From the NCBI GenBank assembly GCA_038087875.1, contig CM075991.1, positions 372,001-436,000 of the forward strand: DNA of 64,000 bases, in the 5' to 3' direction. The stretch is from Malacoraja senta (taxonomy: Eukaryota). The translations under genes were made by a program, and so were the position numbers. Positions 5,282-59,146 of the stretch are shown piece after piece; within the stretch, counting starts at the first letter, position 1, and each line of letters begins with the position of its first letter. The notes below the pieces were generated by a model. The model ran no database searches. It was not told where the DNA came from and worked only from the letters and a program-made list of their open reading frames with translations.

Positions 5282-6375
5282 TCTATATTACTAAAAGTCT
5301 GATCTTGACCTCTTCCTGTTGTTCTATATATTGATTTTAGAAAAAACGCTGCCACTTACGGCTGTGATTTTTGGCCATCTTACTCAGAGTCCCCCTGAGT
5401 TCAAACCAGAGTTGGTTTGAAAATGCTAAAGTTGCCTTGCCTAATTGAAAAGTTGGGTTGAGAATGCTAAAGTTGCCTTGCCTAATTGAAAAGTTGGTTT
5501 GAGAATGCTAAAGTTGCCTTGCCTAATTGAAAAGCTGGTTTGAGAATGCTAAAGTTGCCTTGCCTAATTGAAAAGTTGATTTGAGAATGCCTTCCCTAAT
5601 TGAAAAGTTGGTTTGAGAATGCTAAAGTTGACTTGCCTAATTGAAAAGTTGGTTTGAGAATGCTAAAGTTGCCTTGCCTATTTGAAAAGATGGTTTGAGA
5701 ATGCAAAAGTTGCCTTGCCTAATTGAAAAGTTGGTTTGCGAATGCTCTGCCCAATTGAAAAGTTGATTTGAGAACTCCTTGCCTAATTGAAAAGTTGGTT
5801 TGAGAATGCTAAAGTTGCCTTGCCTAATTGAAAAGTTGGTTTGAGAATGCCTTGCCTAATTGAAAAGTTGGTTTGAGAATGCTAAAGTTGCCTTGCCTAA
5901 TTAACCTAGGCGGTGCTGGCTCGAAGGGCCGAATGGCCTCCTCCTGCACCTATTTTCTATGTTTCTATTCTAGGGGCTAGTGGAGTCAAGGGATATGGGG
6001 AGAAGGCAGGCACGGGTTATTGATAGGGGATGATCAGCCATGATCACAATGAATGGCGGTGCTGGCTCGAAGGGCCGAATGGCCTCCTCCTGCACCTATT
6101 TTCTATGTTTCTGTTTCTAATTGAAAAGTTGGTTTGAGATTGCTAAAGTTGCCTTGCCTAATTGAAAAGTTGGTTTGAGAATGCTAAAGTTGCCTTGCCG
6201 TCTATATAATTAAATGTCTAATCTTGACCACTTCCTGTTTGCACTGTATATTGATTTTAGGAAAAGCGCTACCACGTACGGCTGTGATATTTGGCCATCT
6301 TACTCAGAGTCCCCCTCCGCTCATCAGATGCCGAGGATTTTTCCCATTGATGAAAAATAAAAGAGTTATTAGTTA
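5282..6375 (+). mobile_element. Helitron-like non-autonomous element: two 5' ends (5282, 6201) bracketing a minisatellite
   Basis: a|TCTATATTACTAAAAGTC and TCTATATAATTAAATGTC starts resemble Helitron 5' termini and begin a ~115-bp direct repeat. No convincing 3' hairpin/CTRR was found. Confidence 0.5.
5405..6199. repeat. 41-bp minisatellite with shorter variants, interrupted by CR1 tail pieces at about 5908-6117
   Basis: Unit gcctaattgaaaagttggtttgagaatgctaaagttgcctt; period 41 (5411 to 5452); no unique spacers. Confidence 0.92.
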
Positions 6376-21007: not shown

Positions 21008-21736
21008 CAGTGAAACCTTGTTATAGTGGACCATAGGGAAGGAGGGGGGGGGGGGGGAATACATGTTGTCTGTTCTTGCCGACTGTCCATTATAACCGTG
21101 AAAGGGATTATCAGTGCATAAGTAGTGGAAACAAAGAAATGTAGATGCTGGTTAATACACAAAGAGGCACAAAGTGCTGGAGTAAATCAATAGGTCAGGC
21201 TGCCTCTCTGGAGAATATGGATAGGTGATGTTTCAAGTTGAGACCCTTCTTTAGAGTCTTGGTCTGGAACCAGGCCTGGAATCCAGGCGAGTTGACAGCC
21301 CTGACCTGCTGATGGCCAGTTGAGAGGTGAGGATCGGCTGAGTTAATGGTCTTGAGTAGCCGGAGTGCAGGCAAGGGTCGGCGGCAGGCATAGCCTGAAA
21401 GTGGCCGAGGAAACGATGTAGGCTGGTAGTGGTGGCAGCAGGTCCAGCCTGGAAGCAACCGTGGAGGCTGTGCAGGTCGGCATTGGCAGCCCGGCCTAGA
21501 AGTGGTCAGGGAGGTGGTGCGGGCCAGGGATGGTGTCAGCAACCTGGCCTAGTATCAGCCGGAGATAATGTCGGCAGCTCGGCCTAGAAGTGGCCAAAGG
21601 TTGCGTCCGCAGTCAGGACAGGAAGTGGCCGGGGAGGTGTGGCGTTGACAGTCTGGCCAGCCGGAGAAGGTCGATAGGTCCGCCCACAATAAAGAGATTC
21701 TGTTATAAAGAGGTTCATAAAATTGACGGTTTACTA
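21008..21736. mobile_element. Decayed Tigger/pogo-like non-autonomous element with a GC-rich interior
   Basis: TA|CAGTGAAACCTTGTTATAG start and ...gacggtttacta|TA end. The host CR1 tail (ataattttgtata-cttctatc) rejoins across it. Confidence 0.55.
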
Positions 21737-24507
21737 TACTTCTATCATCTCCCTTCAAAGTGCGGCGTTCCAGAGAAAACAATCCAAGTGTATCTAACCT
21801 GTAGCTGAAACCCTCTTTAATACAAGCAGCATTTTGATAAACATCCTCTACAGCATCCTCAAAGCTTCCATATCCATCTCTAATGGGACGACCAGAACTG
21901 CACACAATACTCTAAATGAGGCCTAACTTTACAGATCTACATCTGTCTCAATTCATTGCTATCCTGTAAACCTTCCTCATTTATGAGGAGAATGTAGACA
22001 GGCTGAGTTTGTTTTCCCCTGAGAAGAGATGGTTGAGGAACAATCTGATATTATAAAGAGTTACACAGCATGGAAACAGGCCCTTCGACTAAACACATTC
22101 ATGCCGACCAAGTGACAGATCTCCGCTAGTACCATTTGACTGTTTGGCCTATATCCCGCTACACCATTTCTATCCATGTACCTGTCCAAGTATCTTTAAA
22201 TGTTGTTATTGTACCTATACCTCAACTACCTCCTCTGGCAGTTTGTTCCATATATCCACCACCCTGTGAAAATGTTCCCCTCAGGATCAAGTTTAATCTT
22301 TCACTTTAAACCAATGCTCTATCCTGGGTAAAAGTCTCTGTGCATTTATTCCCCTCATGATTTTATACGCCTTTATAAGATCGCACCTCCACGTCCTGCA
22401 CTCCAAGGAATAAAGTCCAAGCCTGCTCACCTTTTCCCTATGACTCAGGCACTTGCGTAAGGGCGACATCCTTGCAAATCTTGGATGCTTCCTCTGGCAG
22501 GGTTGCCAAAATTGTAAATGGTACTCCATATGTGGCTTCACCAACATCTTGTTAAACTGTAACTCAATTTCTATATTTAATAGCCCGATTAATAAAGGTC
22601 AGCATGCGAAAAGTCTTCTTCACTACCCCATCTACCTGTGATGCCAATTTCAGGAAACAATGTTAATGTACCTGTGCTCTTAGATCCCTCTGCTCTACAA
22701 CATTCCCCATGAGATACCATTTACAATAATGATGCCAGGAATGATTAGGTTAACCTATGATGAGCGTTTGTCGGCACTGATCCTGTACTCGCTGGATTTT
22801 AGAAGAATGAGGGGGGACCTCATTGAAACATACAGAATAGTGAAAGGCTTGGATAGATGTGGGGAGGATGTTTCCATTAGTGGAAGAGTCTAGAACTATG
22901 GGCCATAGCCTCAGAATCAAAGGACGTTCTTTTAGGAAGTAGAGGAGAAATTACTTTAGTCAAAGGGTGATGAATCTGTGGAATTCTTTGCCACAGAAGG
23001 CTGTGGAGGCCAAGTCAGTGATCAGGCAGAGATAGATAGATTCTTGATTAGTACAGGTGTTAGAGATTATGGGGAGCAGGAGAATGGGGTTAGGAGGGAG
23101 GGATAGATCAGCCATGATTGAATGGCGTAGACTTGATGGGCCGAATGGCCTAATTCTACTCCTGTCACACGACCTTATTCAATGTGATGGATTGAATTTG
23201 TAAGGTAATATTTGAAATTATGAACAGATATTGATACAATTGTATCACCGTTGCAGGGTGAAGTGGGGTTTTTTTTGGGGTGTGAAGCTGTTTGTACAGA
23301 TTTTACATGGGATTAAATGCCACAGGTCATTCTCCAAGTAGTGTTCTTCCCATTGCGTCTCCTCTGATGGAACTATCTGCTCACATCTGACATACATGAC
23401 TCATTAGCACTATTCTCCAGGTCAGAAGTATGGGATCCAAGCTGCACATCATGCTTTGAGCGAGCAACCAAATTATCCTCCAGAGCAGCAACAAAAACTA
23501 GTCTATCGTCGTCACCACGTTTTAAGCCATACAGACCATAGCTTCTTGAATAGTATGGGAAAGTATTGAATAGTATGGGTGCCAGGGGTTATGGGGAGAG
23601 GGCAGGAGAATGGGGTCAGGAGGGAGATATAGATCAGCCATGATTGAATGGCGGAGTAGACTTGATAGGCCAAATGGCCTACTTCTACTCCTATCACTGA
23701 TGATCTTATGACCTATGACTTCCCCTAACAGGCCAATACTTTCTGTGTGTGTTTTTTCTTTTGCTTTTTGAAATGTGGCTTAAGAAGCGGGACTTAAACA
23801 AAAATGTGTGTTCTATCCTGCAGAAAGAGGAATAGGTCAACCCATCGTTTTCTGGCAGGAAAAGCTAACTGTATACAAAGGCTGTCTAACAACTTTTAAG
23901 TAAAATACTTTGGGGAATCCTTGATATTGCCCACATTGCCATTTTTTTTTAAGTATTCATACACAGGATCTGGGTGTAACTGGCAAATTTGTTGCTTATC
24001 ACTAGTTGCCTTCACATGAATCTCTTTCCTGACGCACAACAATAGGTGACGTTTCGGATCAGGACCCTTATTCAGACTGAACATCATTCAACAACATCCT
24101 CCACAGATGCTGCCTGACCTGCTGAGTTACTCCATAATTGTGTGTGTTTTTTTGGTAAACCAGAAACTGCAATTTTTTGCATCTCTAATTCATAATACAA
24201 AGAAGTTGGACAAAGTGATTGGCCTGTGATAAATGAACAGGCACATTTTCAAGTCAGAAAAGTTTCCAACACTGCTTCAATATTTCTCTATTCTCTGATC
24301 GCCACCAGCACACGATAGCACAAACTCCAAACTGTTCCTTCTTGCAGGAAAATTTGCAGATGGTGCTGTAGTGTGCATAACTCGTACTGGTGGAGCAGAC
24401 AGGCTATGGAAGTATTAAAACAGCATTGGAAATCTGTTGAAGAACACCTTACAGATAGTACACAACGCCAGAACTGCAACACAGGGCAATGGGATTGTTG
24501 AACTTAC

Positions 24508-24710
24508 GTGATGTATTTATTGTAAAGCACGAACGCACTTTCCAGGTTGCCTTCATCCACATACACTGCAGCCATGCGAATCATTTCAACACCAGAGCGG
24601 AAGTACCTCCGCAGAGGGACATCATCGTTGATGTCGACAGAGCTTCCTTTCTTTGTGAGGGCCCGCACACGCTCCACGGGAGATAAACGAACATCGGAGT
24701 GTTCTGGCAT
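24508..24710 (-). CDS. STAMBP: STAMBP (AMSH) first coding exon, 203 coding nt; exon extends to the acceptor at 24728
   Basis: Translates [67 protein letters not shown](T), the AMSH N-terminal/MIT region. Acceptor ctttccctgcAG at 24730-24729, donor GTAAGT at 24507-24502. YNKYIT, KHRDYK and FPKAE across the exons fit STAMBP better than STAMBPL1. Confidence 0.95.
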
Positions 24711-24796
24711 CGCAAGCAAGCCACTCCACTGCAGGGAAAGGACGAGAGCAACACATCACACAACAATTAGCACACTATTTCATAGACCTGGACAAG

Positions 24797-31954: not shown

Positions 31955-32730
31955 ATTACCGCACGGTGCCAGCCTCACCAACAGTCAATCTTTTTGTCTT
32001 TTTTTAGTTTTTTTAGTGTGTTTTAAAAGTTTGTGTTAATGTTCTCTGGTTTGTTTTATGTGGGGGTGGGGGTGGGGGAGGGGGTGTGGAAGGGGGCCGG
32101 GGGAAACTTTTTTTCAATCTCTTAACTTGCCGGAGATGCGATTGTTTTCCGGATCGTATCTCCGGTCGCTCGGCGGACTAACATCGTGGAGCTGGCGGTC
32201 TTGCTCGGGACTGGCTTTGAGCCCCACCGCCGGGACGTGAACTTACCATTGGAGCCAATCCCTTGCCTGGGATCGACGCTCCAACTGCAGCCTGTGGATT
32301 TCACCATCGAGGAGCAAGCAGTCTCTGGTAGAGACTGATGTCGGGAAGCTCCAAACGACGCAGAAGGATCGACTAGCCCCGACCCGGGGTCAGATCGTCC
32401 GGCGCGGGATAGCTGACATCCCCCCCGATGCAGAAGCTTGATCGCCCCAAACGTGGAAGGCCCGAACGCCGCCGGCAACGGGAGCCAAGGTCGTCCCGTC
32501 AATGGAAGGCCCGAGGCACCCGACCGCGGGAGAACAAAGAAGGGAAGAGATTGAACTTTTTTTCCCTTCCATCACAGTGAGGAATGTGGAGGAGTCACTG
32601 TGGTGGATGTTCATGTTAACATGTATTTTGTGTGTTTTGTTGCTTTTTACTGGTATTACTGAATCAAATTCCTCGTATGTTGCAAAACATACTCGGCTAA
32701 TAAAGTATGATTATGATTATTATGATTATA
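31955..32730 (+). mobile_element. GC/CpG-rich non-coding retroposon with AATAAA and microsatellite tail (relatives at 8990-9760 +, 14510-14910 -, 43310-44045 -)
   Basis: Shared blocks (ttagtgtgt...ggggaaac; ccttccc/atcacagtg...gatgtt) and tails (tatgat)n or (cttata)n. Inserted cleanly into a CR1 at gataa. Confidence 0.65.
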
Positions 32731-34490: not shown

Positions 34491-35354
34491 TCTCCTTAAA
34501 GTGGACAGGTACATGGGTAGGACAGGTTTAGAGGGAGATGGACCAAGCGCAGGCAAGTGGGACGAATGTAGCTGCGACATTGTTGGGCCAAAGGGCTTGT
34601 TTCCACACTATCACTCTATGACTCGAAGTGGCAGTACCTTGAACAACGTGGAAACAAAGAACTGCAGATGCTAGTTTAAACCAAAGATAGACACGATCTG
34701 CTGGAGTAACACAGCGGGTCAGGCAGCATCCCTGGAAAGAAAGAATGGATGACGTTTTAGGTCGAGACTCTTCTACAGACTTTTTATACAGAGAGGGTGG
34801 TAGGTATATGAAACTAACTGCCGGAGGAGGTAGTTGTGACAGGTTCTATCGCACCAATCGCAACAGGTCCATGGATAGGATAGGTTTAGAAGGATATGGA
34901 CCAAACGCAGGCAGGCGGGACTTGTTAGATGGGGAATGTTGGCCAACGGAGACAAATTGAGCTGAAGGGCCTGTTTCCACCCTGTACGACTCCCCTCTCT
35001 CCAACCCCCTTCCTCCAATAAAAGTTGGTTAACCAGTTTAACAGTTCGCAATGATATTTGATAGTTTTAGCAACAAAGTTCTAGCACTTTGTATCTATCT
35101 TTGAGATAACAATCATCTGCAGTTCATATTTATTACATTAAGTGACAGTTGCTTGCAGGTGAAGGGGATTTGATTGGCAGATGGGAGGAGTAAGTGACAA
35201 AGGCCAGAGATGAAAAGAAGACAAAAGGATGTCAGGCAAGGAGGGAAGAGGAGTAAATGCCAAGCCAGAAGGCGGGATATAAGTGGTGGAAAGATGGGGA
35301 CAAGACACGGTGTGGAGAAGGGAGACAGAGCATGGGATAAATGGGTGCCGACGG

Positions 35355-37839
35355 CAGAGCAGCCAACGCTCACGCATTGAGCGTGAGACTCACGCATTTC
35401 GCCCAATTCTCACGCTCTCACGCTGATCACAGAATTTCTCACGCTGTCATGAAATATTCTGTGATCAACGAGAATTTCAAAACTAATATCAACTGCATGG
35501 GCCGCGGGTGTTGGAGAGCCGGGGCTGAGGGAGGGATGGAAACAGAAGCAGCGGCGGGGGCAGATGCGGACGTGGAGCTGAGGCTGGCGAGTGTTTGCCA
35601 AGCTGGCGAGTCGGTCGCTGCAGCTCCGGCCATGGAGCAGCCTCATTTTCTCCAACCACCCCCATTTGAAGGCCACTATCTTCCACTACTTCTACCCAGT
35701 GCTTGGTATTTTCCTCCAGCAGCAACTGGTTGTCCTCCAGGATGCACCGAGCTGCAGCCTGGTCCATGCCGGTCACCAGGGCGAATTCGGCACAGAGACT
35801 CTCACGGCAGCGGCGCAACGCTTCCGTCGCCTCTGACGGCCCGGGACTCTTGCATTTCTATTCAACCTGTCCTATCCATGTATCAGTCTTTCTTAAATGT
35901 TGGGATAGTCCCTGCCTCAACTACCTCCTCTGGTTACCCCTCAAAAATACTTCAAACAAAACAAATTGAAATCATACTTCTACAATGCACTAAAACATGA
36001 TTTTAATACATAAAATTTCAAAAAAGGCCCTACCTTGGGAGGGGGGCACCCCCCTCCCACACTCGGTTGCTCCACCCCCAAGGCCAGTGATCACTCAGCC
36101 CACCCACTTTCAAAAACGCTCCGCGGCCCCTGGTTCAGACGGAGAGCACTGCCAGATGTGAGCGGGGAACTGAGGCCAGTTGTCCGTGATGTCTGGATCC
36201 CATGATCAGCGCTTTGTGTTTTGGAGTTGGCTAATGTTATTGATTTGTAATTAGCCTGATTTGTAATTAGTTGACAAAACCTTAATTTATTAATCCGGAA
36301 TATCCAGGGGGATGGGATAAGTGTAATATTAAAATGACATGCAAGGTGTCAGGCTGTCTGTCACAACATACAGCCCCGATAACCTATTATTTCCTTCAGT
36401 TAAATATTGGGAAGGTAGCACTATTGTCATTTGCCACTCAACTATTATGTTTGTTTGCCTCACTGATTATTCATAACCCCCCCCCCCCCCAAATTCCTTT
36501 GACAGGTTGAATAGAAATGACCCCAATCTCGTTGTTTTATTAATTGAACACGTAGATGAACATCCTCAAGGAATGTAATCAGATGGAAACTGATTCAGAT
36601 GTGATGTTTATGAGCTTGTTCAAAGAAGGGGCATATTTTAAAGGAGTGACAGAGATACTTGCAGGGGAATGTGTGAGGAGGTTATTATTTGTCTTTACTT
36701 TTAGCTTGAACCAGGACATCTGAAGATTCAAAGTTTAATATAGTAATTGTGTATCATTGTTGTGTTATGAATATCACAAAAAATATTATGTACTCTCAAG
36801 ATCACATTAAATAGAATATTATTGCTTAAATATATAGTTATTGGACTTTGCATTTCGGCAAAGTCCCAGCTGAGAGGAAGACAGCAAAATACTGAAAATA
36901 TTGGGGGTGAAAATGACTTCAGGACAGTTTGTTAGGAAAATGAAGGAAATGGTAACAGAATATTTATACAGCTGAGTGAGTATAATTTTATGGATAAGAA
37001 ATTATGTTCAACCAATGGATTACTTCTTTGACAAAGTAACTAGCATGTTCGATAACAAGGAAGCCAATGGATGTAGCAAATACAAAATTTGGTCCGTGAA
37101 GTGCCCCATAAAAGATTACCGCATTAGATAAGCACCTGTGGACTTGAACGTAATAGGTTAAGTCCAGGGGGTCAGATATGGGGCTTTATATGTGGGCCAG
37201 TTATATTGTCAGTGCAGAGGGGCTAGGAGCAAGGCCAAGTGTGCATCCAGAGTCAAAGTCTGGAATAGTACTAGGTGTGCAGTCAAAGCTGGCACAATTT
37301 GAGTGTTCAGCACAGGGAACCTAAGCAGGTAAGCAGCTATGATCAGGGTAGAATAGGGTGTAAGGCTGGACTCAGGGTCAGGAATGAGAGAATGTATGCA
37401 ACTGGAGTCAGGGTCAGTAGTACCAATTGTGCAGTGAGACCCAGGTTGGCCAAGTGCTTGATTATAATCTGACTTCCATACATGAATACACTGAGATCAT
37501 CCATGTGCTGCACCTGTTGATCAGAAGTCTGAAGAAGGGTTTCAGCCCGAAACGTTGCCTATTTCCTTCGCTCCATAGATGCTGCTGCACCCGCTGAGTT
37601 TCTCCAGCATTTTTGTGTACCTGTTGATCAGAGCCTGGCTCTACTATGGAATGTAATTTAGATCAACCTTATTCATAGCTAATCCAATTTAAAGCATAAA
37701 TATTGCATTTAAGAAAAGACTCGCAACAGTATGCACCAGATTGCACAATTTCAAGCTGAAAAATGCAAAAGCTCCATACCAATGGGAGGGGGGACTCGGG
37801 CTTGGTCTCACTCATTTCCCAACTCTCACCCAATGTTGG
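35355..37839 (+). mobile_element. Second, more decayed copy of the same TIR family with different cargo
   Basis: Left end cagagcagccaac followed by the same ctcacgc subterminal repeats. Right subterminal block 37640-37839 matches 51400-51662. It splits a Penelope-derived tail that rejoins across the insertion (compare 44320-44560). Confidence 0.75.
37526..37618 (+). mobile_element. About 93-bp Penelope pLTR-derived mini-element with hammerhead motif
   Basis: Nearly identical to 59051-59146. 14-bp TSD acctgttgatcaga at 37512-37525 and 37619-37632. Confidence 0.85.
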
Positions 37840-38487
37840 GGGGAGGGGCACAGGAAAGAGGAGTAGGGGGGGGGGGGCATGTTAGTTAAAGCTGGAGAAT
37901 TCAATGCTCATACCCTCTGGTTGTAAGTTACCCACACAGAACATGAGGTGTGCTGTTCCTCCAGTTTGTGTGGCCTCACTCAGCCCGGATCAGAAAGGTT
38001 AGTATGGGAATAGGAATGGGAAGGTTAGCAACCGGGAGATCCAACAGACCGAGCGCCCTGAACAAAAATGGCATTTACAAAGTAAATAAGGCAAACACAA
38101 TTGTGGTCTTTAACAATATAGGCATACCGTATATAAACAAGGAAGTCGTGCTGAATCTTTAGAAATGACTGGCCCTGCCTCAGCTGGAGTTTGGTGTTGA
38201 ATCTTAGCCACCCGGCTCAACGTGGAGAGGATGTGATGGTGGGGCTGAGGTATTTGCTGTGAAAGAGGAGATAGTGGGAGCGCGGGGCGCCGGGCGGTGA
38301 CACAGGGGACCCGGAACGGGACGACCAGGTACGGGGAGGAGCAGCCGCGGGGCGGGGTTGGCCAGTCACCGACACAAAGTGAACGCGAGCGTGCAATGAC
38401 TGCTGCTCGGACCCCCGGGGGCAGGGAGCGGCGCCCGCAGAGACAGCACTACTACAACGGGCCGAACGGCCTCCGCTCTTCACTCAC

Positions 38488-38560
38488 CCGCCCGGATCCC
38501 TGCGCCGACCACTAGGCCGCAAGCCCCGCCCCCCCCACATCATCACAGCAGTCCGTCATC
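38488..38560 (-). other. STAMBP: Putative non-coding exon 1 of STAMBP (TSS not defined)
   Basis: Strong donor CGG|GTGAGTG at 38487-38481 inside the only non-TE CpG island upstream of the ATG exon, directly downstream of a promoter motif cluster. Confidence 0.65.
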
Positions 38561-38920
38561 ACGTTAATTACGCCGCAAACCACCCCGCTGCACCATTACG
38601 TCACTACGCCGCGACGTCATTGCGCCGCAACTTCCGCCCTCCTCGTTGTCACGTGACAGTTCCACCTCGGCCAATCACAGGCTGGTCCGCACCTCAGCCG
38701 TCCAATGACCACAGACCATGCTCTCCTCCAATCACAGCTCCTGACCAATCAGCACAGCTTACCGCCGCCCAACAGCCAATCACCCGCTGTGTTTCTCAGC
38801 ATTTTTGTGTACCTTCGATTTTCCAGCATCTGCAGTTCCTTCTTTAACAGCCAATCACCGCACGCGGTATCCGCCCGGCGACCAATTAGAATGGAGGCCA
38901 CCCTGTGCCCGAGACTGGAG

Positions 38921-39028
38921 AGCTCGTCACTTCCTCCCGACACGCCCACACGCATCTCGTCACTTCCTCCCGACACGCCCACACGCAGCTCGTCACTTCC
39001 TCCCGGCACGCCCACACGCTGCTCGTCT
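38921..39028. repeat. 33-bp tandem repeat, about 3.2 copies, in the promoter
   Basis: Unit agctcgtcacttcctcccgacacgcccacacgc; ctcgtcac recurs at 38923, 38956 and 38989. Confidence 0.9.
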
Positions 39029-42000: not shown

Positions 42001-45000
42001 GACTGGGGATGTTGGCACCTTGTGCCTGACCCGCCATTCAATGAGATCATAATTGATCTTTCTCCTCAGCATTGCTTTCCTATCTAAAACCCATATCCCT
42101 TGATCCATTGAGCAGCAGTGATCTGTACTTGAAACATGGTCAGATCATTGCATGCATCTCAATGTACTGAAGAGTGTGTGAAGAGAATGACGGGCTACGG
42201 GAATTGTGGAGGAAAATGGAGTGGAGGTAAATCACCCATCAGAGTATCAGGCAACCCCACTACTGTTCCTAATTCCTATGCTTTGGTAATTTTTTACTTT
42301 AAAAAAAATGTTTTATTCATAAAAAATCAAAATGTCTGTACCAGAATTTTCCAGCCAACAATATCATCACAAGCCACGTTATTCCGATTATTCTCTGTTT
42401 GCACATCAGTTGCAATAGCCCTTGAGCAAATAGTTGCGTGCAGTGGGAAGAGGGCCTTGAACTTTGCTCTCCCCATAGAGCCTTAGCTCTATTGTGAAAA
42501 TAAGATCACACAGTGCAGGCACTAACACATCGACATTGATCAGTAGATTGACAGGGTGACAGGAAACTGAATTGGCATGAGTAGTCTTTAGCTGGTTGGC
42601 AAGATGCAGAGAGTCAAGTGTCTTATTGTCCGATGTCCTGACAAGGAACAATGAAGCAGCAGCACTACAGGTTGTAAACACAATACTCTGTAGATAATAT
42701 AATAAACAAAAAGAAAAGTTCAATAAGTAAAAAACACAATATAGTGCCAACACACCACAATGCCCAAATCCCTAGTGTAACCCAGGAAGTTGATAGTTCA
42801 GCTGGAGCTTATTATGTTCAATGGCTTGATGGTTGGTCATTGGGATGAAGTTGTTCTTGAACATGGATGTTACAGTTTTTATATTCCCTGGCAGGAGTGA
42901 AATGAGAGTGTGGCCAGTATGGTGTGGGTCCTTATGATGCTGGCTGCCTTTTGCTGCAATGACTCCTATAGATCCCCTCTATGGTGGGGAGGTCAGTACT
43001 GGTGATGGACCAGGTAGGGCACACCACTTTTTGTAATCTCCTTTGTTCCTAGGCATTCGAGTTGTAATGAGTGACGTTCCAGAGGGATCAGTGTTGGGCC
43101 TCAATGTTTTATAATTTACATAAATGTCTTGGGGAAAGGAACCAAATAGGTTTGCTGAACTGTTTGATGGCATAAAAAGAGTAAGAAATTAAGAGTCAGA
43201 CATAGGAACTACAAATGCTGATTTATCAAAAAAAAAGATACGAAGTGCTGGGTTAATTAGTCGGGCCAGGCAGCATTTCTGGAGAACATGGATAGGTATA
43301 AGCATAAGTATAAGTATAAGTATTTTTATTAGTCACATTCACATACACCCAGGTGTAGTGAAGTGAAATGCTTCTTGCCATTATGCAGCACACAAAAGAA
43401 TAGAATACAAACATAACACCAAGATAGCCTTAACACAAAGAACATCCCCCCACAATGGCTCCCACCATGAGGGAAGGCACAAAGTCCAGTCCCCAACCCC
43501 AGTTCACCCATAGTCGGGCCCATTGAGGCCTCCACAGTTGCCTCTACGGAGGCCCGATGTTCCAGGCCGTTCTCGCCGGGTGATATTGCTCCGGCGTCGG
43601 GAGAGTCCTCCCAGCGGCCTGGGAACCCTGGAACGGCCGCTTCCGCACTGGGGGCCGCGGCTTCCGAAGCCAACAAGGCCGCGCCGGTTGGAGCTCCACA
43701 ACTGGCGATCTCATCTAGAGATCCCAGGCTCCCGGTGTAAAGTTCAGCGCCGCCGCCCGCAGCTGGTCGCTCCATAGTCCCGCAGCTCCGCGATGTTTTC
43801 TCCAGCGATCCTCAGCTCACCGGAGCTCCAGCGCGGCGACACGGGCAAGGCACCGCCCGCTCCGCGATAGCGCTCCAGCGCTGTGCCGCCGCCGAAGCCG
43901 GACGTTCTGGGCGGTCCCCCGACAGGAAACGCCGCTCCAGGCCCGCTGGTAGGCCGCGAGGACGGGTCGAAGCTGCAGCCCGGAGAAAAAGCTGCCTCTC
44001 CGGCCAGGTAGGGACCCTGAAAGGTAGTTTCCCCCGTTCCCTCGGGTAACGTTTCAGGTCGGACCCTCCTTCAGACTGATTGCGGTGGGGGGAGAGGTGA
44101 CGAAATCTGGAAGAGAGGTGGGCCCAGGACAAAGCTTGGTGAGTGATAGGTGGATACAGGTGAAGGGGGGGGGGAGATTTGCAAACCTTCACATGGGTCC
44201 GCCCGATTTCAACGAATGCAATCAATCTGGCGTGCACAATCAAATAAGATCAAATAGAACAAGTTGTCCTACAACTTTAGGCTCCGCACACCATTTGCAA
44301 GAAGAAGAAAAAGGTGAGGGGGGATTTTGATTGGCAAATGGTTGGACAAAGATCAGATATAAAAAGACAAAAAGAGAGACAAGAATAGAAGAGGAGTGAA
44401 TTGTGAAGCTAGATGAAGGAATGTAGGTGGAAAGGGGGCAGAAAGTGAGGGAAAAGGGAAAAAGAGAAATGGTGTGAGTCCAGATGAGGCACAGGGAAGA
44501 TAGGGGGAATATAACACGAGAGGTTGTTTGTAGGTTAGTTAGCTAAAATTGGAGAATGCTTGCAAGTTACCCAAGCAGAATGAGATATATGTGAGAAAGA
44601 TATAATGAGGCTACAAGAATACATAAATTAGTTAAGTGAATAAAGATTGGGAAAAGTAGCATGTGAAAAACTTGAAATTGTCTACATTTGCAGAGACCTA
44701 GTTGTCCCAATGAACAATTCCCAATAGGTTTACATGTAGATAAAAATAACAAACCGTTTGGAAAGCTAACAGAATGTTGCTGTTTATTGAAAGAGGAATC
44801 GAAACTGAAAGTGGGGAGCTAATGCTTTCGTTTCAGAGAACATTAAATGCTATAAATATGCTGGGAGCAGCTGGATGATGTGCTAAATCGGTATCAATAG
44901 ACAATAGGTGTAGGAGTAGGCCATTCGGCCCATCGAGCCAGCACCGCCATTCAATGTGATCATGGCTGATCATCCCCAATCAGTACCCCGTTCCTGCCAT

Positions 45001-49310: not shown

Positions 49311-50029
49311 GGAGGAAATACAGTGAAGATCAACAAACCAATTTGTGGAATGACAGCTTTACCACAAGGAGAGATCACGTACGTTAGTGTCCATTTTTTC
49401 TAAAGTTTCTTTTTAGTTGCTTTCTCCATATAAGGGGAGCTCAGCTGGAAGCTACTGTCTCACAGCGCAAGAGGCCCGGGTTTGATCCTAACCTCCAGTG
49501 CTGCCTGTGTGGAATTTGCACGTTTTCTCCCACATTCCAAGGTCATGCAAGTTTGTAGGTGAATTAGTCTCGGTAGGTTGCCCTTGTGTGCAGGAGTGGA
49601 TGAGAAAGTGGGATAACATAGAACTAGTGTGTTTGGGTGATGGATGTTAGTGTGCACCCAGGGCTGCCAACTCTCACGCTTTGAGCGTGAGAATCACGCC
49701 CTCAGGCAAACTCTCACGCCCTCACCGCTGATCAGAAATTTCTCACGCTCTGTGGTGAGAAATTCTGTGATCAACGAAAATTTAAAAACTCAGATAAACT
49801 GCATGGTCCGCGGGTGTTGGAGAGCCGGGGCTGCGGGAGGGATGGAAGCAGCGGGCGGATACAGATGCGGGGAGCCGGTGCTGGTGAGTGTTTGCGGGGC
49901 TGGTGAGTAGCTCGCTGCAGCTCCGACCATGGAGCAGCCTCAGTGCGAGAGTCCCGGGCCGTCGGAGGCGTCGGAAGCATTGCCCCGCTGCCGTGAGAGT
50001 CTCTGTGCCGAAGGGACAGACTCTCAAAG

Positions 50030-50417
50030 GGAGGTGGAGAGAGAGAGAGGGGAAGGAGACAGGGGGGAGAGAGAGGGGAGAGACAGAGGGGGGGTGAATG
50101 GAGTGAGAGAAGAGGGAGAGGGGGGGAGAGAGAGGGATTAGAGGGAAGAGAGAGGGGGTGGAGAGGGTAGGAGAGAATGGGAGAGAGGGGTGGTAAAAGA
50201 GAGAGGGGGAGAGGGAGAGGGGGAAAGAGAGATGGGGGGCAAAGAGAAAGAGGAGATAGAGACAGGAGAAAGAGAGGGGAAAGAGAGAGGGGAAAGAGAG
50301 CAAGGGGGAGAGTGAGGTGGGTGGGAGAAATGGGGGAGCGAGAGAGGAGAGAGAGAGGGGGGAGAGAGAGAGGGGGAGAGAGAGGGAGGGGGAGAGAGAG
50401 GGAGGGGGAGAGAGAGG
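50030..50417. repeat. Polypurine (GA-rich) low-complexity tract
   Basis: About 390 bp of almost pure G/A between the two left arms of the TIR element. Confidence 0.95.
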
Positions 50418-50641
50418 CAGGGCTGCCAACTCCCATGCATTTCGCCAAATTCTCACGCTGATCACAAATTTCTCTTGCTCGGTGGTGAGAAATTCTGTGA
50501 TCAAAGAAAATTTCAAAACTCATATCAACTGCATGGGCCATGGGTGTTGGAAGCAGAAGCAGCGACGGGGACAGATGCGGATGGGGAGCGGGGCTGGCGA
50601 GTGTTTGCCGGGCTGGCGAGTCGCTCACTGCAGCTCCGGCC

Positions 50642-50778
50642 ATGGAGCAGTCTCAGTGCAAGGCGTTGGAAGCGTTGCGCCGCTGCCGTGAGAGTCTCTG
50701 TGCCAAATTCGCCCAGGCATGGATCAGGCTGAGGCTCGGTGAATCCTGGAGGACAACCAGTGGCTGCTGGAAGTAAGT
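50642..50778 (+). pseudogene. Captured TDP2-like exon 1 fragment (UBA-like domain) with splice donor; related pieces at 49929-50012 and 35536-35854
   Basis: The three copies give a consensus MEQPQCESPGPSEASEALRRCRESLCAEFALVTGMDQAAARCILEDNQWLLE followed by GTAAGT (50773-50778). The pattern LCxEFAxVxxxDxAxAxCxLxxNxWxxE matches the vertebrate TDP2 N-terminus as recalled. Every copy is truncated, deleted or inverted. Confidence 0.75.
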
Positions 50779-53700
50779 ACCAAGCACTGGGTAGAAACGG
50801 TGGAAGATAGTGGACGTCAAATGGGGGTGATTGGAGAAAGCATCCTGCTTGCCTGCTAGATTTTCACTTACTGTAACTGCAGGAAAAATGTTCCCAATGT
50901 TGGGGGAGTTCAGAACCAGGGGTCACAGTTTAAGAATAACGGGGGGGGGGGGGGGGGGGCAGTTAGGACTGAGATGAGGACAAACTTTCTTCACACAGAG
51001 AGTTGTGAATATGCGGAATTCTCTGCCACAGAAGGCAGTGCAGGCCAATTCACTGGATGTTTTCAAGAGAGAGTTACATTTAGTTCTTGGGGCTAACGAA
51101 ATCAAGGGATATGGGGAAAAAACAGGAAAGAGGTACAGATTTTAGATGAATAGCCATGATCATATTGAATGGCAGTGCTGGCTCGAAGGGCTGATGGCCT
51201 ATTCCTGCACCTATTTTCTATGTTTCTAGGCTTGAGTATATGGCAATAAACTCGATCACTTGATTTTGAAGCATTCATGCATGGTGGAGGTATAATGTAG
51301 TCATAGAGTGATACAGTGTGAAAACAGGCCTTCGGCACAACTTGCCCACACCCGCCAACATGTCCCAGCTACCCTACCTGCTGGGGGGAATTCCCTACCA
51401 TACTGTGGAATGTAATTAGGAATGTAATTTACTCTAACCTTATTCATAGCTATATATTTAAAGCATATATATTGCATTCAAGTGTAGGTTAAAAGACTCG
51501 CTACAGTATGCACCATATTGCACAATTTCAAGCTGAAAAATGCAAAAGTTCCGTACTAATGGGAGGGGGACACCCTCCTCCCACCCCCCCCCCCCCAGTC
51601 GCCATGCTCCCTCGGGCTTGGTCTCTCGCAATTTCTCACTCCCAACTCTCACCCAATGTTGGCAGCCCTGTGCACCTGATGGGCCGAAGGGCCTGTTTCC
51701 ACGCTGTTTCTTTCCATCAATAAATTTTGAAAAATGCGTGATGAATCCACTTAAGCAAAACAAAAAAAGAGCTCAACCTGTAAGGAGAAAGCTTCCGGGC
51801 TCCGTCCAGAATTAGTGTAAAAATATTCTTATTTAGAACTGGACTGAGAGATTATACAGAGTGGCGAATCTCTGGAATATTCTAAGGCAGAGGGTTGTGG
51901 AGGCTCGGTCACTGACTGCACTCAAAACAGATTCGGAACATCAGGGCAATAAAGGGGGACATGGCAGGAAAGTGTGGGTTAGATCAGCAGTGATCACTTT
52001 GAATGGCAAAGTGGGCCTGACTGACCTGCTCTGTATTTGTACATACCATCCTGGTAAAGATCTATCATCCCCACCAACTCATGTTCATTACAAACCAGCA
52101 GAAAGGCTTCAACTACCAAGTCTCTTGAATGGAAGCCGATGGGGGGCAAACAATAATCTGCAAGCATGTAGTCAGCTGTGATGAAGGTAGACACAAAATG
52201 CCGGAGTAACTGAGGGGACAGGCAGTATCTCTGGGGAGAAGGAATGGGTGACATAGAAACATAGAAAATAGGTGCAGCAGGTGGCCTTTTGGCCCTTCAA
52301 GCCTGCACCACCATTCATTGTGATCATGGCTGATCATCCACAATCAGTACCCCGTTCCTGTCTTCTCCCCATATCCCTTGATTCCACAAGCCCCTGTAGC
52401 TCTATCTAACTCTCTTTTAAATTCATCCATTGAATTGGCCTCTACTGCCGTCTGTGGCAGAGAATTCCACAAATTCACAACTCTCTGGGTGAAAAAGTTT
52501 TATCTCATCTCAGTTCTTAGACTGTGGTCCCTGGTTCTGGATGCCTCCATCATTGGGCAATTTTTTCCTGCATCCAGCTTGTCCAGTCCTTTTATAATTT
52601 TATACGTTTCTATTAGATATCCTCTCATCCTTCTAAGTTCCAGTGAATACAAGCCCAGTCTTTCCAATCTTTCCTCATATGACAGTCCCGCCATCCCGAG
52701 GATTAACCTCGTGAACCTACGCTGCACTGCCTCAATAGCAAGGATGTCCTTCCTCAAATTAGGAGACCAAAACCGCACACAATACTCCAGATGTGGTCTC
52801 ACCAGGGCCTGTGCAACGGCAGAAGGACCTCTTTACTTCTATACTCAAATCCTCTTGTTATGAAGGCCAACATGCCATGTTATGAAGGCCAAACGTTGCC
52901 TATTTCCTTTGCTACACAGATGCTGCCTCACCCGCTGAGTTTCTCCAGCATTTTTATCTACATGCCATTCGCTTTCTTCACTGCCTGCTGTACCTGCATG
53001 TTTACTTTCAGTGACTCGTGTATAAGGACACCCAGGTCTCATTGCACTTCCCTTTTTCCTAATCTGGCACTATTGAGATAATAATCTGCTTCCTTGCTCT
53101 TGCTGCCTAAATGGATAACCTCACATTTATCTACATTATACTGCATCTGCCACGCATTTGCCCACTCACTCAACCTGTCCAAGTCACCCTGCAACCTCCT
53201 TGCATCCTCTTCGCAGTTCACTGCCACCCAGCTTTGTGCCATCTGCAAATTTGTTAGTGTTACATCTAAATCATTAATATATATTGTAAATAGTTGCGGC
53301 CCCAGCACCGAGAGTTGCGGCACTCCATTCGCCTCTGCCTGATATTCTGACAGGGATCCGTTTATTCCTACTCTTTGTTTCTCTATCCATGTCAATATCC
53401 TACCCCCAATACCATGTGCTCTAATCTTGCCCCCTAATCTCCTGTGTGGGACCTTATCAAAGGCATTCTGAAAGTCCAGATACACTACATCCACTGGCTC
53501 TCCTTCATCCTTTTTACTTGTCACATTCTCAAAAAATTCCAGAAGATTAGTCAAGTACAATATCCCCTTCATAAATTCATGCTGATTTGGACCAATTCAT
53601 TACTGCTGTCCAATGCGCTGTTATTAATTCTTTAATAATTTACTCCAGCATCTTCCCCACCACCGATGTCAGACTAACTGGTCTGTAATTCCGTTTACTC

Positions 53701-55980: not shown

Positions 55981-56944
55981 TGATTTCTCGAGCCACCTCC
56001 TTGAGTACCCTGGGATGCAGACCATCAGGCCCTGGGAATTCATCAGCCTTCAGTCCCATCAGTCTACCCAATACTATTTCTCGCCTAATGCAAATTTCTT
56101 TCAGTTCTTGTCTCCCCAGATCCTCTGGGAGATTGTTTGCTTCTTCCTTAGTGAAGACAGAACCAAAGTACCTGTTCAACTCTTCTGCCATTTCCCTGTT
56201 CCCGATAATAATTTCACCTGTTTCTGCCTTCAAGGGACCCAGATTAGTCTTTACTAATCATTTTCTCTTAACATACCTAAAGAAACTTTTACTACCCTTC
56301 TTTATATTCTTGGCCAGCTTATCCTCATACTTCATCTTTTCACCCCGTATTGCCCTTTTTGTTACCTTCTGTTGTCCTTTGAAAGTTACTCAATCCTCAG
56401 GCTTCCCGCTACTCTTTGCTATATTATACACCTTTTCGTTTAGTTTTATTCCATCCCTAACTTCCCTTGTCAGCCACTGTTGCCTCTTAGAATCTTTCTT
56501 CCTCTTTGGAATGAAATGATCCTGCATCTTCTGCATTATGCCCAGAAATTCCTGCCATTGCTGTTCCACCGTCATTCCTGCTAGGATTCTTTTCCAGTTG
56601 ACCTTGGCCAGCTCCTCTCTCAAGCCTTCATAGCCCCCTTTGTTCAACTGCAACACTGACACTTCTGATTTAACCTTCTCCCTCTCAAATTGCAGATTAA
56701 AATTTATCATATTATGGTCACTATCTCCTTGCAGTTCCTTTACCTTGAGTTCCTTTATTAAATCTGGTTCATTAGACAACACTAAATCCAGAATTGCCTT
56801 CCCTCTGTTAGGCTCCAGTGCAAGCTGCTCTAAGAATCCATTTCGGAGGCACTCTACAAACTCCCTTTCTTGGGGTCCAGAACCAACCTGATTTTCCCAG
56901 TCTACCTGCATATTGAAATCTCCCATAACCACAGTGGCTTTACC

Positions 56945-59146
56945 ACTGATGACCCCTTTTCCCGTCTCCAACGCACCCCATCCTCATGGAACCCCCCTCA
57001 TAGCCTTCCGGCTTTAGAACTCTTTATTCAAAACTGCCGCCGTGACATCAACCGCCTCAACTTCTCCACTCCCCTGTCTCACTCCAATCTCTCCCCCCCT
57101 GAACGCACTGCCATCGACTCACTCCGCAACAACCTAGATTGGGTTATCAAACCCACCGACAAGGGAGGTGCCGTGGTAGTCTGGCGCGTCGATCTCTACA
57201 AAGCTGCCACGCGCCAACTCTCGGACACCTCCTCCTACTTACCCCTGGACCATGACCCCACTGACGAGCACCAGGCCACCATCTCCAGCACCATCACCGA
57301 CTTCATCCACTCCCACGCCCTGCCCGACCGAGCCTTCAACCTCATCGTTCCCCAGCCCCGCACAGCCCGCTTTTACCTTCTCCCCAAAATCCACAAACCT
57401 GACTGTCCCGGTAGACCCATTGTCTCTGCCTGTTCGTGCCCCACCGAACTCATCTCCACCTACCTCGACTCCATCCTATCCCCCTTGGTTAAATCCCTCC
57501 CTACCTATGTTCAAGACACCTCAGACACTCTCCGTCATCTCCGCGCATTCCACTCTCTAGGCCCTCACCCCCTCATCTTCACCATGGACGTCCAGTCATT
57601 GTACACCTCCATCCCCCACCAGGATGGTCTCGAAGCCCTCCGTTTTTTCATCGACCGTAGAAGCAATCTATACCCGGCCACTGACACCCTCCTCCGCCTA
57701 GCGGAGCTGGTCCTTACACTTAATAACTTTTCATTTGACTCCTCCCATTTCCTCCAAATACAAGGCGTAGCTATGGGCACACGCATGGGCCCCAGCTACG
57801 CCTGCCTCTTTGTCGGGTACGTAGAACAATCCTTGTTCAATGCGTACCAGGGCCCCATCCCCGACCTCTACCTCCGCTACATCGATGATTGTTTTGGTGC
57901 CACATCCTGCACCCACACACAACTGACTAACTTCATCCGCTTCACCACCAACTTCCATCCGGCACTCAAATACACCTGGACCATTTCCGACACTTCCCTA
58001 CCATTCCTTGACCTCACTATCTCCATCGCAGGTGATAGACTCCTTACCGACATCCACTACAAACCTACCGACTCCCATGGCTATCTGGACTACACTTCTT
58101 CCCACCCTGCTTCCTGTAAGGACTCCATCCCCCACTCCCAATTCCTCCGTCTACGCCGCATCTGCTCCCAGGATGAGGCGTTCCACACCAGGGCATCTGA
58201 AATGTCCTCATTCTTCAGGGAACGGGGGTTCCCCTCCTCCACCATAGATGAGGCTCGCACCAGGGTCTCTGCCATACCCCGCAACACTGCTCTCTCTCCC
58301 CATCCCCACTCACAACAAGGGCAGAGTCCCCCTAGTCCTCACCTTTCACCCCACCAGCCGTCACATACAAGTGATCCTCCGTCAGTTTCGCCACCTCCAA
58401 CGTGACCCCACCACTCGCCACATCTTCCCATCTCCCCCCATGTCTGCCTTCCGCAAAGACCGCTCCCTCCGTAACTCCCTTGTCAATTCTTCCCTTCCCT
58501 CCCATACCACCCCCTCCCCTGGTACTTTCCCTTGCAACCGCAAGAGATGCAACACTTGTCCCTTCACCTCCCCCCTCCACTCCATTCAAGGACCCAAGCA
58601 GTCGTTCCAGGTGCGACAGAGGTTCACCTGCATCTCCTCCAACCTCATCTATTGCATTCGCTGCTCTAGATGCCAGCTGATCTACATCGGTGAGACCAAG
58701 CGGAGGCTTGGCGATCGTTTCGCCGAACACCTCCGGTCGGTCCGCAATAACCAACCTGAACTCCCGGTGGCTCAGCACTTCAACTCCCCCTCCCATTCCG
58801 TATCTGACCTCTCTGTCCTGGGTCTCCTCCATAACCACAGCGAGCAACACCGTAAATTGGAGGAAATGCACCTCATATTCCGCTTGGCCAGTCTACATCC
58901 TGGGGGTTTGAACATTGAATTCTCCCAATTCTGCTAGCCCTTGCTGTCCCCTCCCCTTCATCAGCCATCTGGTTGTCTCCTCCCCTCCCCCAGCCCTCGG
59001 GCTCCTCCTCCGCCTTTTTCCTTTTTTCCTTTCTTCTCCCACACCCTATCAGTCTGAAGAAGGGTTTCGGCCCGAAACGTTACCTATTTCCTTCGCTCCA
59101 TAGATGCTGCTGCACCCGCTGAGTTTCTCCAGCATTTTTGTGTACC
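56945..59146 (+). mobile_element. Penelope-like element (RT plus GIY-YIG endonuclease, frameshift near 58300) with a 3' pLTR hammerhead motif
   Basis: KPTDKGGAVV, LPKIHK, GRPIVS, GVAMG and YLRYIDD motifs, then a CNRKRCNTC linker and NLIYCIRC...YIGETKRRLGDRFAEH. TSD gtggctttacc at 56934-56944 and 59147-59157. Confidence 0.95.
59051..59084 (+). ncRNA. Minimal hammerhead ribozyme motif in the Penelope pLTR
   Basis: CTGAAGA (59054-59060), stem II gggt-ttcg-gccc, GAAAC (59074-59078), palindromic AACGTT. Minimal hammerheads are an established feature of PLE termini. Confidence 0.7.

Follow-up and report, generated by a model that had tools for sequence, protein, structure and literature searches.

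Few multicopy Pack-TIRs have been published from vertebrate reference genomes, each with a handful of copies; the survey of 100 animal genomes by Tan et al. (2021, PMC8277862) found four cases (1.4%), with three to five copies in the examples given. Pack-hAT-N8_XT, described there, carries 291 bp of the CAPSL 5′ UTR. The captured pieces are biased to GC-rich 5′ ends, and the model put forward in section 9 of that work is capture by template switching followed by transposition. Because the survey picked young cases, it may have passed over old families with many copies, and in its main text the word ‘shark’ occurs 0 times. In the fungus Pseudocercospora fijiensis, hAT-mediated amplification of histone H3 has led to hundreds of dead copies with the parent gene intact (PMC6710886), and gene captures are common in bat Helitrons (PMC4224331).

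The locus considered here lies in a window of 64,000 nucleotides of the skate Malacoraja senta (the whole stretch analysed, to which all coordinates refer). Judged from its sequence, 35355-37839 is a single old, damaged copy of a multicopy skate TIR element that carries the 5′ end and first exon of TDP2. The best explanation, and one that seems rather probable, is that a Pack-type master multiplied, that this copy decayed where it landed and that a second element in the window, at 49659-51670, is its reciprocal sister. A literature search retrieved no description of a skate TDP2 transposon family; Repbase and Dfam, which lay outside that search, may list it.

The captured piece of TDP2

The element opens with a decayed left TIR (35355-35367, plus strand) that departs at two positions from the 49659 element's 13-bp TIR and forms the tip of a subterminal arm with CTCACGC repeats (35355-35490, plus strand). 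The border between arm and captured DNA is somewhere in 35450-35535; unrelated ORFs match the left-arm frame at residues 2-39 only, up to about 35455. The same left-end sequence was also seen in unrelated contigs (P0007-P0012), two of which, P0007 and P0011, apparently have the right end nearby as well, and this suggests that short cargo-free MITEs with these ends occur in other organisms.

Inward of the arm are the captured 5′ region of TDP2 and its first 36 codons (35491-35645, plus strand, 5′ limit approximate; GC 0.67, CpG observed/expected 0.77), then the inverted stub of TDP2 intron 1 (35646-35713, minus strand), which has a decayed donor and ends short of where un-inverted copies go on, and then the inverted remainder of exon 1 (35714-35854, minus strand), 47 codons with a UBA-like domain. 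A first-pass annotation of this DNA held that the left arm is the same as that of the other copy, and both other left arms in the window do match 35355-35645, namely 49659-49942 over 241 of 280 aligned bases (86%) and 50417-50655 over 209 of 237 (88%). It also took the ATG at 35536 for the real start, and that codon aligns with residue 1 of the annotated TDP2 of Rhinoraja longicauda and Amblyraja radiata.

The translation of the captured exon matches skate TDP2 at 67-69% identity (E 2e-17). That of the inverted part matches the human TDP2 UBA structure 6q00 (E 0.0035) and, among 54 candidates, matched only two proteins, both skate TDP2. With skate TDP2 as the tblastn query against the window, the matching residues stopped at the end of exon 1, with no convincing match to the catalytic domain. 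Full-length TDP2 was found in three skates other than the window genome (P0002, P0003, P0014). A W codon of TDP2 is changed at 35724 in this copy, at a position where nearly all aligned contigs have the TDP2 letter.

In the 50418 arm the exon ends in GTAAGT followed by intron sequence, and TDP2 protein homology stops there; after the same last codon this copy reads GAAAAT, the donor decay that had been remarked on before. Because the 50418 arm retains donor and intron, exon plus intron were captured as DNA and not as a retrocopy. The N-terminus of the element combines features of Rajidae-type and Arhynchobatidae TDP2 proteins, and the mixture is a faint hint that capture occurred near or before the split of these two families. 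CpG observed/expected is 0.70-0.77 in the captured region and 0.70-0.89 in the other arms versus 0.24 in the interior, and the CpG retained in the captured region would leave room for residual promoter activity. We know of no hAT transposition step that involves a 5′-tyrosyl bond, and so the choice of TDP2 as cargo was probably chance, aided by a bias toward GC-rich 5′ ends.

A stop-free frame of 219 codons on the plus strand (35341-36000) runs from the flank across both inversion junctions. It has no Pfam match and no homolog that crosses a junction, and is probably a chance product of GC-rich DNA. Rfam gave 0 matches over 35000-38800.

Insertion site and surroundings

The element interrupts a Penelope-type relic, as the first-pass annotation had supposed. 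The 5′ half, which was the insertion target (35157-35354), aligns to 44312-~44490; the 3′ half (37840-38041) matches 58854-58925, at the end of a GIY-YIG ORF behind an RT ORF; and the two match consecutive parts of one uninterrupted repeat at 44312-44662. A near-intact Penelope-type element is present at 56834-58937, with a 523-aa RT frame and a 229-aa GIY-YIG frame offset by a frameshift, and the Pfam scores for the RT and GIY-YIG frames are both slightly below the curated cut-off.

A single-copy contig from organism E (X9 record 24) spans 35049-35380 and so reaches 26 bases beyond the left border of the element; it shows 17 differences over its whole length. Were the site empty, those last 26 bases alone would contribute 16-21 further mismatches. 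In the flanks, organism E and the window are about 5-7% apart. As this contig enters the element, the insertion is older than the split of the window's species from organism E, and because the flanks form one interrupted relic and the left junction is common to another organism, it was a single old insertion. At the other side, a contig from organism B (X3 record 23) starts at 37840 with 32 unplaced letters, as it would next to either an intact end of the element or an empty site. No TSD was found at this copy, and its right arm (37648-37839, plus strand) ends without the last 8 TIR bases. Speculatively, one 12-base deletion between two GG pairs would explain both losses. Having lost its right end, the copy is immobile, and it is most likely inert.

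The first coding exon of STAMBP is at 24508-24728 on the minus strand, and a CpG island at 38250-38950 (observed/expected 0.95), with an 8/9 donor at 38487, likely holds a putative non-coding exon 1 (38488-38600, minus strand, 5′ end approximate), which would place the element in intron 1. The inverted TDP2 exon sits on the STAMBP sense strand. Its exonisation into STAMBP was rejected from splice-consensus counts alone: the AG right before it has 6 pyrimidines in 20, versus 17 in 20 at the true STAMBP acceptor, the best of 22 candidate acceptors has 14 in 20 and lies 95 nt upstream, and no donor for it scores above 6/9, true donors scoring 8/9.

Several other features of the window may be recorded here. 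Just upstream of the putative STAMBP exon 1, at 38890-39025, a GC-rich unit of 30 bases with a CACTTCCTC-type core is present four times in tandem. CpG-rich patches occur at 32001-32500 and 43501-44000 (observed/expected 0.95-0.98), the former being inside the presumed STAMBP intron 1, where it could be another first exon or a young repeat. A tandem array with 41- and 32-base periods occupies 5351-6263. TIR-like matches at 21303, 21494 and 22498 were judged by eye to be chance; a further one is at 1505.

Copy number and the inversion

Contigs of four (X1, X3, X9, X16) of 23 listed runs, among which no RNA set was named, were aligned to 34600-38800 at 80% likeness, and their summed depth was set against single copy; summed contig depth is no copy number, and SINE/LINE peak bins and a part-flank bin are excluded from the figures. 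X16, which is probably DNA, has no contigs over 38125-38800. In X1, X3 and X9 the depth was 1,878-10,877 times single copy over three TDP2 bins, 1,581-8,657 times over ten interior bins and 3,995-6,150 times in the right arm. All 14 tabulated bins are thereby 1,581-10,877-fold above single copy, with the TDP2 part, interior and right arm sharing one range, and past 38125 the depth is that of single copy. The consensus letter is present in 28-88 contigs at individual interior positions, versus 1 in the flank. The interior had been called ‘unique-looking’, which holds within the window and fails for the genomes, where it is high in copy. Division of the depth by 31, for worst-case overlap of short contigs, would put the floor at about 50-350 copies, and the family may number roughly from 50 to several thousand.

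When reverse complemented, 35646-35854 matches the rest of exon 1 and the intron stub of the 50418 arm over 165 of 183 aligned bases (90%) and the 49659 arm over 64 of 69 (93%), so that the inversion reported in the first-pass annotation is real. It is not the ‘precise’ one described there: the exon-side junction is short of one base, and at the other the continuation of the intron downstream is gone. Beyond the intron stub, un-inverted copies have a fixed sequence: the read-through proteins P0005, P0013 and P0006 and the 50418 arm all end in the same peptide; P0013 starts inside the transposon arm and is therefore a copy of the element. Here the flipped exon abuts a retroelement scrap (35856-35933). 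The inversion is unbalanced, being coupled to a deletion. Junction microhomology amounts to at most 2 bases, which is not convincing, and no arm is duplicated at this copy, so the inversion forms no hairpin. At this locus it is most likely an ordinary repair scar.

The un-inverted form is found in both of the other window arms and in all three of the read-through proteins, and its strand-switch joint, 35645>35854, appears in 4/4 runs (9, 4, 12 and 1 contigs). The depth of that joint is below 1% of local depth: 1,325 versus 285,000-357,000 in X1, 1,748 plus 399 versus 122,000-316,000 in X3, for which there was no undercount warning, and 257 plus 59 versus 55,000-91,000 in X9. An inverted majority would also give such a figure, and the possibility that the inversion and deletion arose in a master that then multiplied, leaving this locus near the consensus, draws further on an interior depth about that of the TDP2 part and on the bins with junctions showing no dip in X1 and X9. 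We regard such an inverted subfamily as unlikely. None of the 31 contig records listed, a sample biased toward joints, crosses either junction co-linearly, and three stop at one with unplaced letters (X1 record 3, X9 record 25, X16 record 9). The 219-aa frame across both junctions gave seven phmmer matches, 0 of which cross the first junction, and the minus-strand frame gave one match among 17 candidates, which is un-inverted. In reading these counts it has to be kept in mind that joints need about 19 letters per side, which short high-depth contigs presumably cannot supply, and that gene callers favour the un-inverted frame, with the result that protein and record samples are both biased to un-inverted copies. 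The missing reciprocal joint 35646/35855, looked for among the 15 joints listed (a further 911 lie outside the list), was considered as a sign of an inverted subfamily and dropped, as a deletion explains it equally well. Overall the inversion is reasonably likely to be private to this copy or minor.

It is improbable that dispersed CpG-rich copies of the TDP2 start in skates, hundreds to thousands of them and some in an amplified flipped-exon subfamily, act inside introns and near promoters as portable promoters or UBA exons, with sense and antisense RNA tuning the parent gene; if they did, this copy would be turned toward the STAMBP promoter at a distance of 2.6 kb. For the sense and antisense RNA that the first-pass annotation thought possible, the inversion is in any case not needed, since an un-inverted copy lying in reverse orientation within a gene would produce antisense too.

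The interior, the sister element and relatives

The scrap at 35856-35933 is from the 3′ end of an abundant retroelement, with a depth peak and loose contig ends. Next to it is the embedded right end of a second MITE-like family (35935-36132), with no partner end in the window; the TIR-like end expected near 36132 is at exactly that position, and the segment shares a 70% motif with the right arm of the element. A contig of another copy (X3 record 19) spans 36085-36246 and crosses this end, and the MITE end reads as a fixed part of the element interior. The remaining family interior (36133-37518) is high in copy and non-coding. Of the old CR1 relics claimed for it, a CR1-type RT relic at ~37000-37130 can be aligned, in register, to two stretches of the window that have RT motifs, but the match is weak, scoring 50 versus 41-48 for four shuffles. 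The mini-retroelement with a Penelope-associated end, recognized earlier as a PLE mini-element, is nested at 37512-37632 between two copies of a 14-bp word; 37526-37622 has more than 20 look-alikes in the window. It is missing from some family copies: a joint 37518>37630 in X3 (one contig, depth 533) skips it and ties the interior to the right arm, the skip being 111 bases where a clean empty site would give 107.

Among the 31 listed records of >358,000 pieces, diverged ones cover 36085-37525 apart from one gap of 25 bases and one place where two pieces abut, and the protein P0004 is co-linear with 36289-36720. Continuity is weak across 35935-36085, with depth down to 126-1,827 at 36027 and none of the listed pieces spanning 35855-36085; similar dips at 37808-37816 coincide with indels. 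No host-gene homology was found in 23 of 63 interior and arm ORFs scanned, nor for P0004. A tblastx search of 36133-37518 against the window gave no match, and exact-pattern scans of metagenome contigs gave 0 loci. An exon-like frame at 36556-36720 was considered as a second captured exon and rejected, having one match of 8 candidates (P0004, a family copy), no Pfam match and no Atlas match.

The sister element (49659-51670, plus strand), upstream of the CpG island and outside STAMBP intron 1, has perfect 13-bp TIRs, a perfect 6-bp TSD, an un-inverted TDP2 piece and an internal second left end at 50418, and is without the 35935-37640 interior. Its two left ends (49659, 50418) are in tandem with a 390-base GA-rich tract between them. 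The first TDP2 piece breaks off mid-exon; the second has an 18-base deletion, which also appears as a joint, 35645>35825, in three runs.

By BLAST the interiors of the two window elements share nothing except a generic MITE-end motif. Compared at these two loci only, they are nevertheless not unrelated, being adjacent parts of one order: 51295-51381 in the sister and 35856-35933 here are consecutive, same-orientation parts of one retroelement 3′ end, and in free copies of the retroelement the two scraps sit 19 nt apart (34821-34992) and ~30 nt apart (22029-22238). The crude chance of two elements breaking in adjacent parts of one scrap is 0.4-0.5%. Since both break within one retroelement scrap, reciprocal deletions of one master are indicated, and it is fairly likely that the two window elements both arose by deletion from a single longer, multicopy master of Pack type, a history for which cargo exchange is unneeded.

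The first-pass annotation had the family exchange its internal cargo. In such a scheme, of the kind seen in plant Pack-TYPE elements, arms and TDP2 piece would stay constant and captured interiors would be swapped between copies. Two window elements that share no interior beyond the MITE-end motif could be read that way, and the interior is a patchwork put together from several sources at some time; but one interior stops and the other starts within neighbouring parts of a single retroelement, the interior and right arm are linked in other copies, the interior matches the arms in repetitiveness, leaving little room for many cargos, and the ORFs scanned are without host-gene homology, all of which makes swapping quite unlikely. 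Barely credible is a chance adjacency of a left half bearing TDP2 and an independent interior/right-arm repeat, each a partial insertion, to which the missing TSD, the shortened right TIR, the depth dip at 36027 and the foreign TIR-like end at 36132 would be congenial, as both arms belong to the 49659-51670 element, the flanks rejoin as one repeat and there is no sign of the single-copy native interior that had been envisaged between two such insertions. Wear on this copy, and not a swapping of cargo, seems to be behind the inverted exon and the unusual interior.

The history favoured here, descent from one master, would run as follows. A non-autonomous cut-and-paste element with CAGGG-type 13-bp TIRs would have captured the TDP2 upstream region, exon 1 and intron stub as DNA, by template switching and then transposition if the Pack-TIR model is adopted. 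A master of ~3 kb, presumably in the order left arm, TDP2 piece, intron continuation, retroelement scrap, second MITE end, 1.4-kb interior, right arm, would then have multiplied in skates; the whole order was seen on no single molecule, the link from intron continuation through scrap to MITE end being a supposition. Before the lineages of organism E and the window's species parted, one copy would have entered the Penelope-type relic within intron 1 of STAMBP. A later inversion and deletion, most likely a two-step template switch in repair or replication, would have flipped 35646-35854 and in the same event removed the stretch between intron stub and retroelement scrap. This copy, with the mini-retroelement inside it, would also have lost its right TIR end, and the 49659 element would be the reciprocal derivative that retained the removed stretch and lost the interior.

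By its testable features the element can be classed as a non-autonomous multicopy Pack-TIR. Host-derived non-TE DNA, the TDP2 5′ piece, lies between TIR-element ends in both window elements; dispersed copies are represented by three arms in the window, by depth and diverged contigs in 4/4 runs and by P0005, P0013 and P0006; and the one intact copy, the 49659 element, has a perfect 6-bp TSD (1/1). No transposase domain was found in 28 of 63 listed ORFs scanned. An 8-bp TSD fails with the 13-bp TIR and would reach 7/8 if the terminal base were dropped, but that base is present in 3/3 left ends. The CAGGG-type TIR may be like Blackjack-type ends. On the strength of one TSD the superfamily is, tentatively, probably hAT6/Blackjack-like.

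A skate family with tens to thousands of repair-gene first exons would extend a plant-like outcome to vertebrates, and its loci would allow tests of whether the captured CpG-island starts remain active or bring about silencing of the parent gene. It also carries a warning, as skate TDP2 exon-1 reads and gene models can derive from repeats. A gene-carrying DNA transposon at this copy number is unusual in a vertebrate, and the copy number is the notable part.

The element is like the hAT6/Blackjack lineage of hAT (PMC12730594) in the 6-bp TSD of the one intact copy, and differs in having one TSD only and no transposase in the 28 ORFs scanned. IS3EU elements, in the same source, have a 6-bp TSD and TIRs of >30 bp ending TAYGG, whereas here the TIR is 13 bp and begins CAGGG. 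With multicopy Pack-TIRs of the Pack-hAT-N8_XT type (PMC8277862), the family shares a GC-rich 5′ gene fragment, DNA-level capture, spread by transposition and later loss of ends; in contrast to those cases, its copies number at least ~50, and perhaps thousands, in several skates, its captured exon is coding and includes the start codon, and its interior is long and composite. The hAT amplification of H3 in P. fijiensis (PMC6710886) is also a housekeeping gene captured by hAT and amplified, but in a fungus, by a transposase-bearing element and with inactivation by RIP. Bat Helitrons (PMC4224331) are alike in that in a vertebrate a DNA transposon has amplified host 5′ regions (promoters, exons, introns) and carries nested elements, and are unlike in being rolling-circle transposons without TIRs or TSDs.
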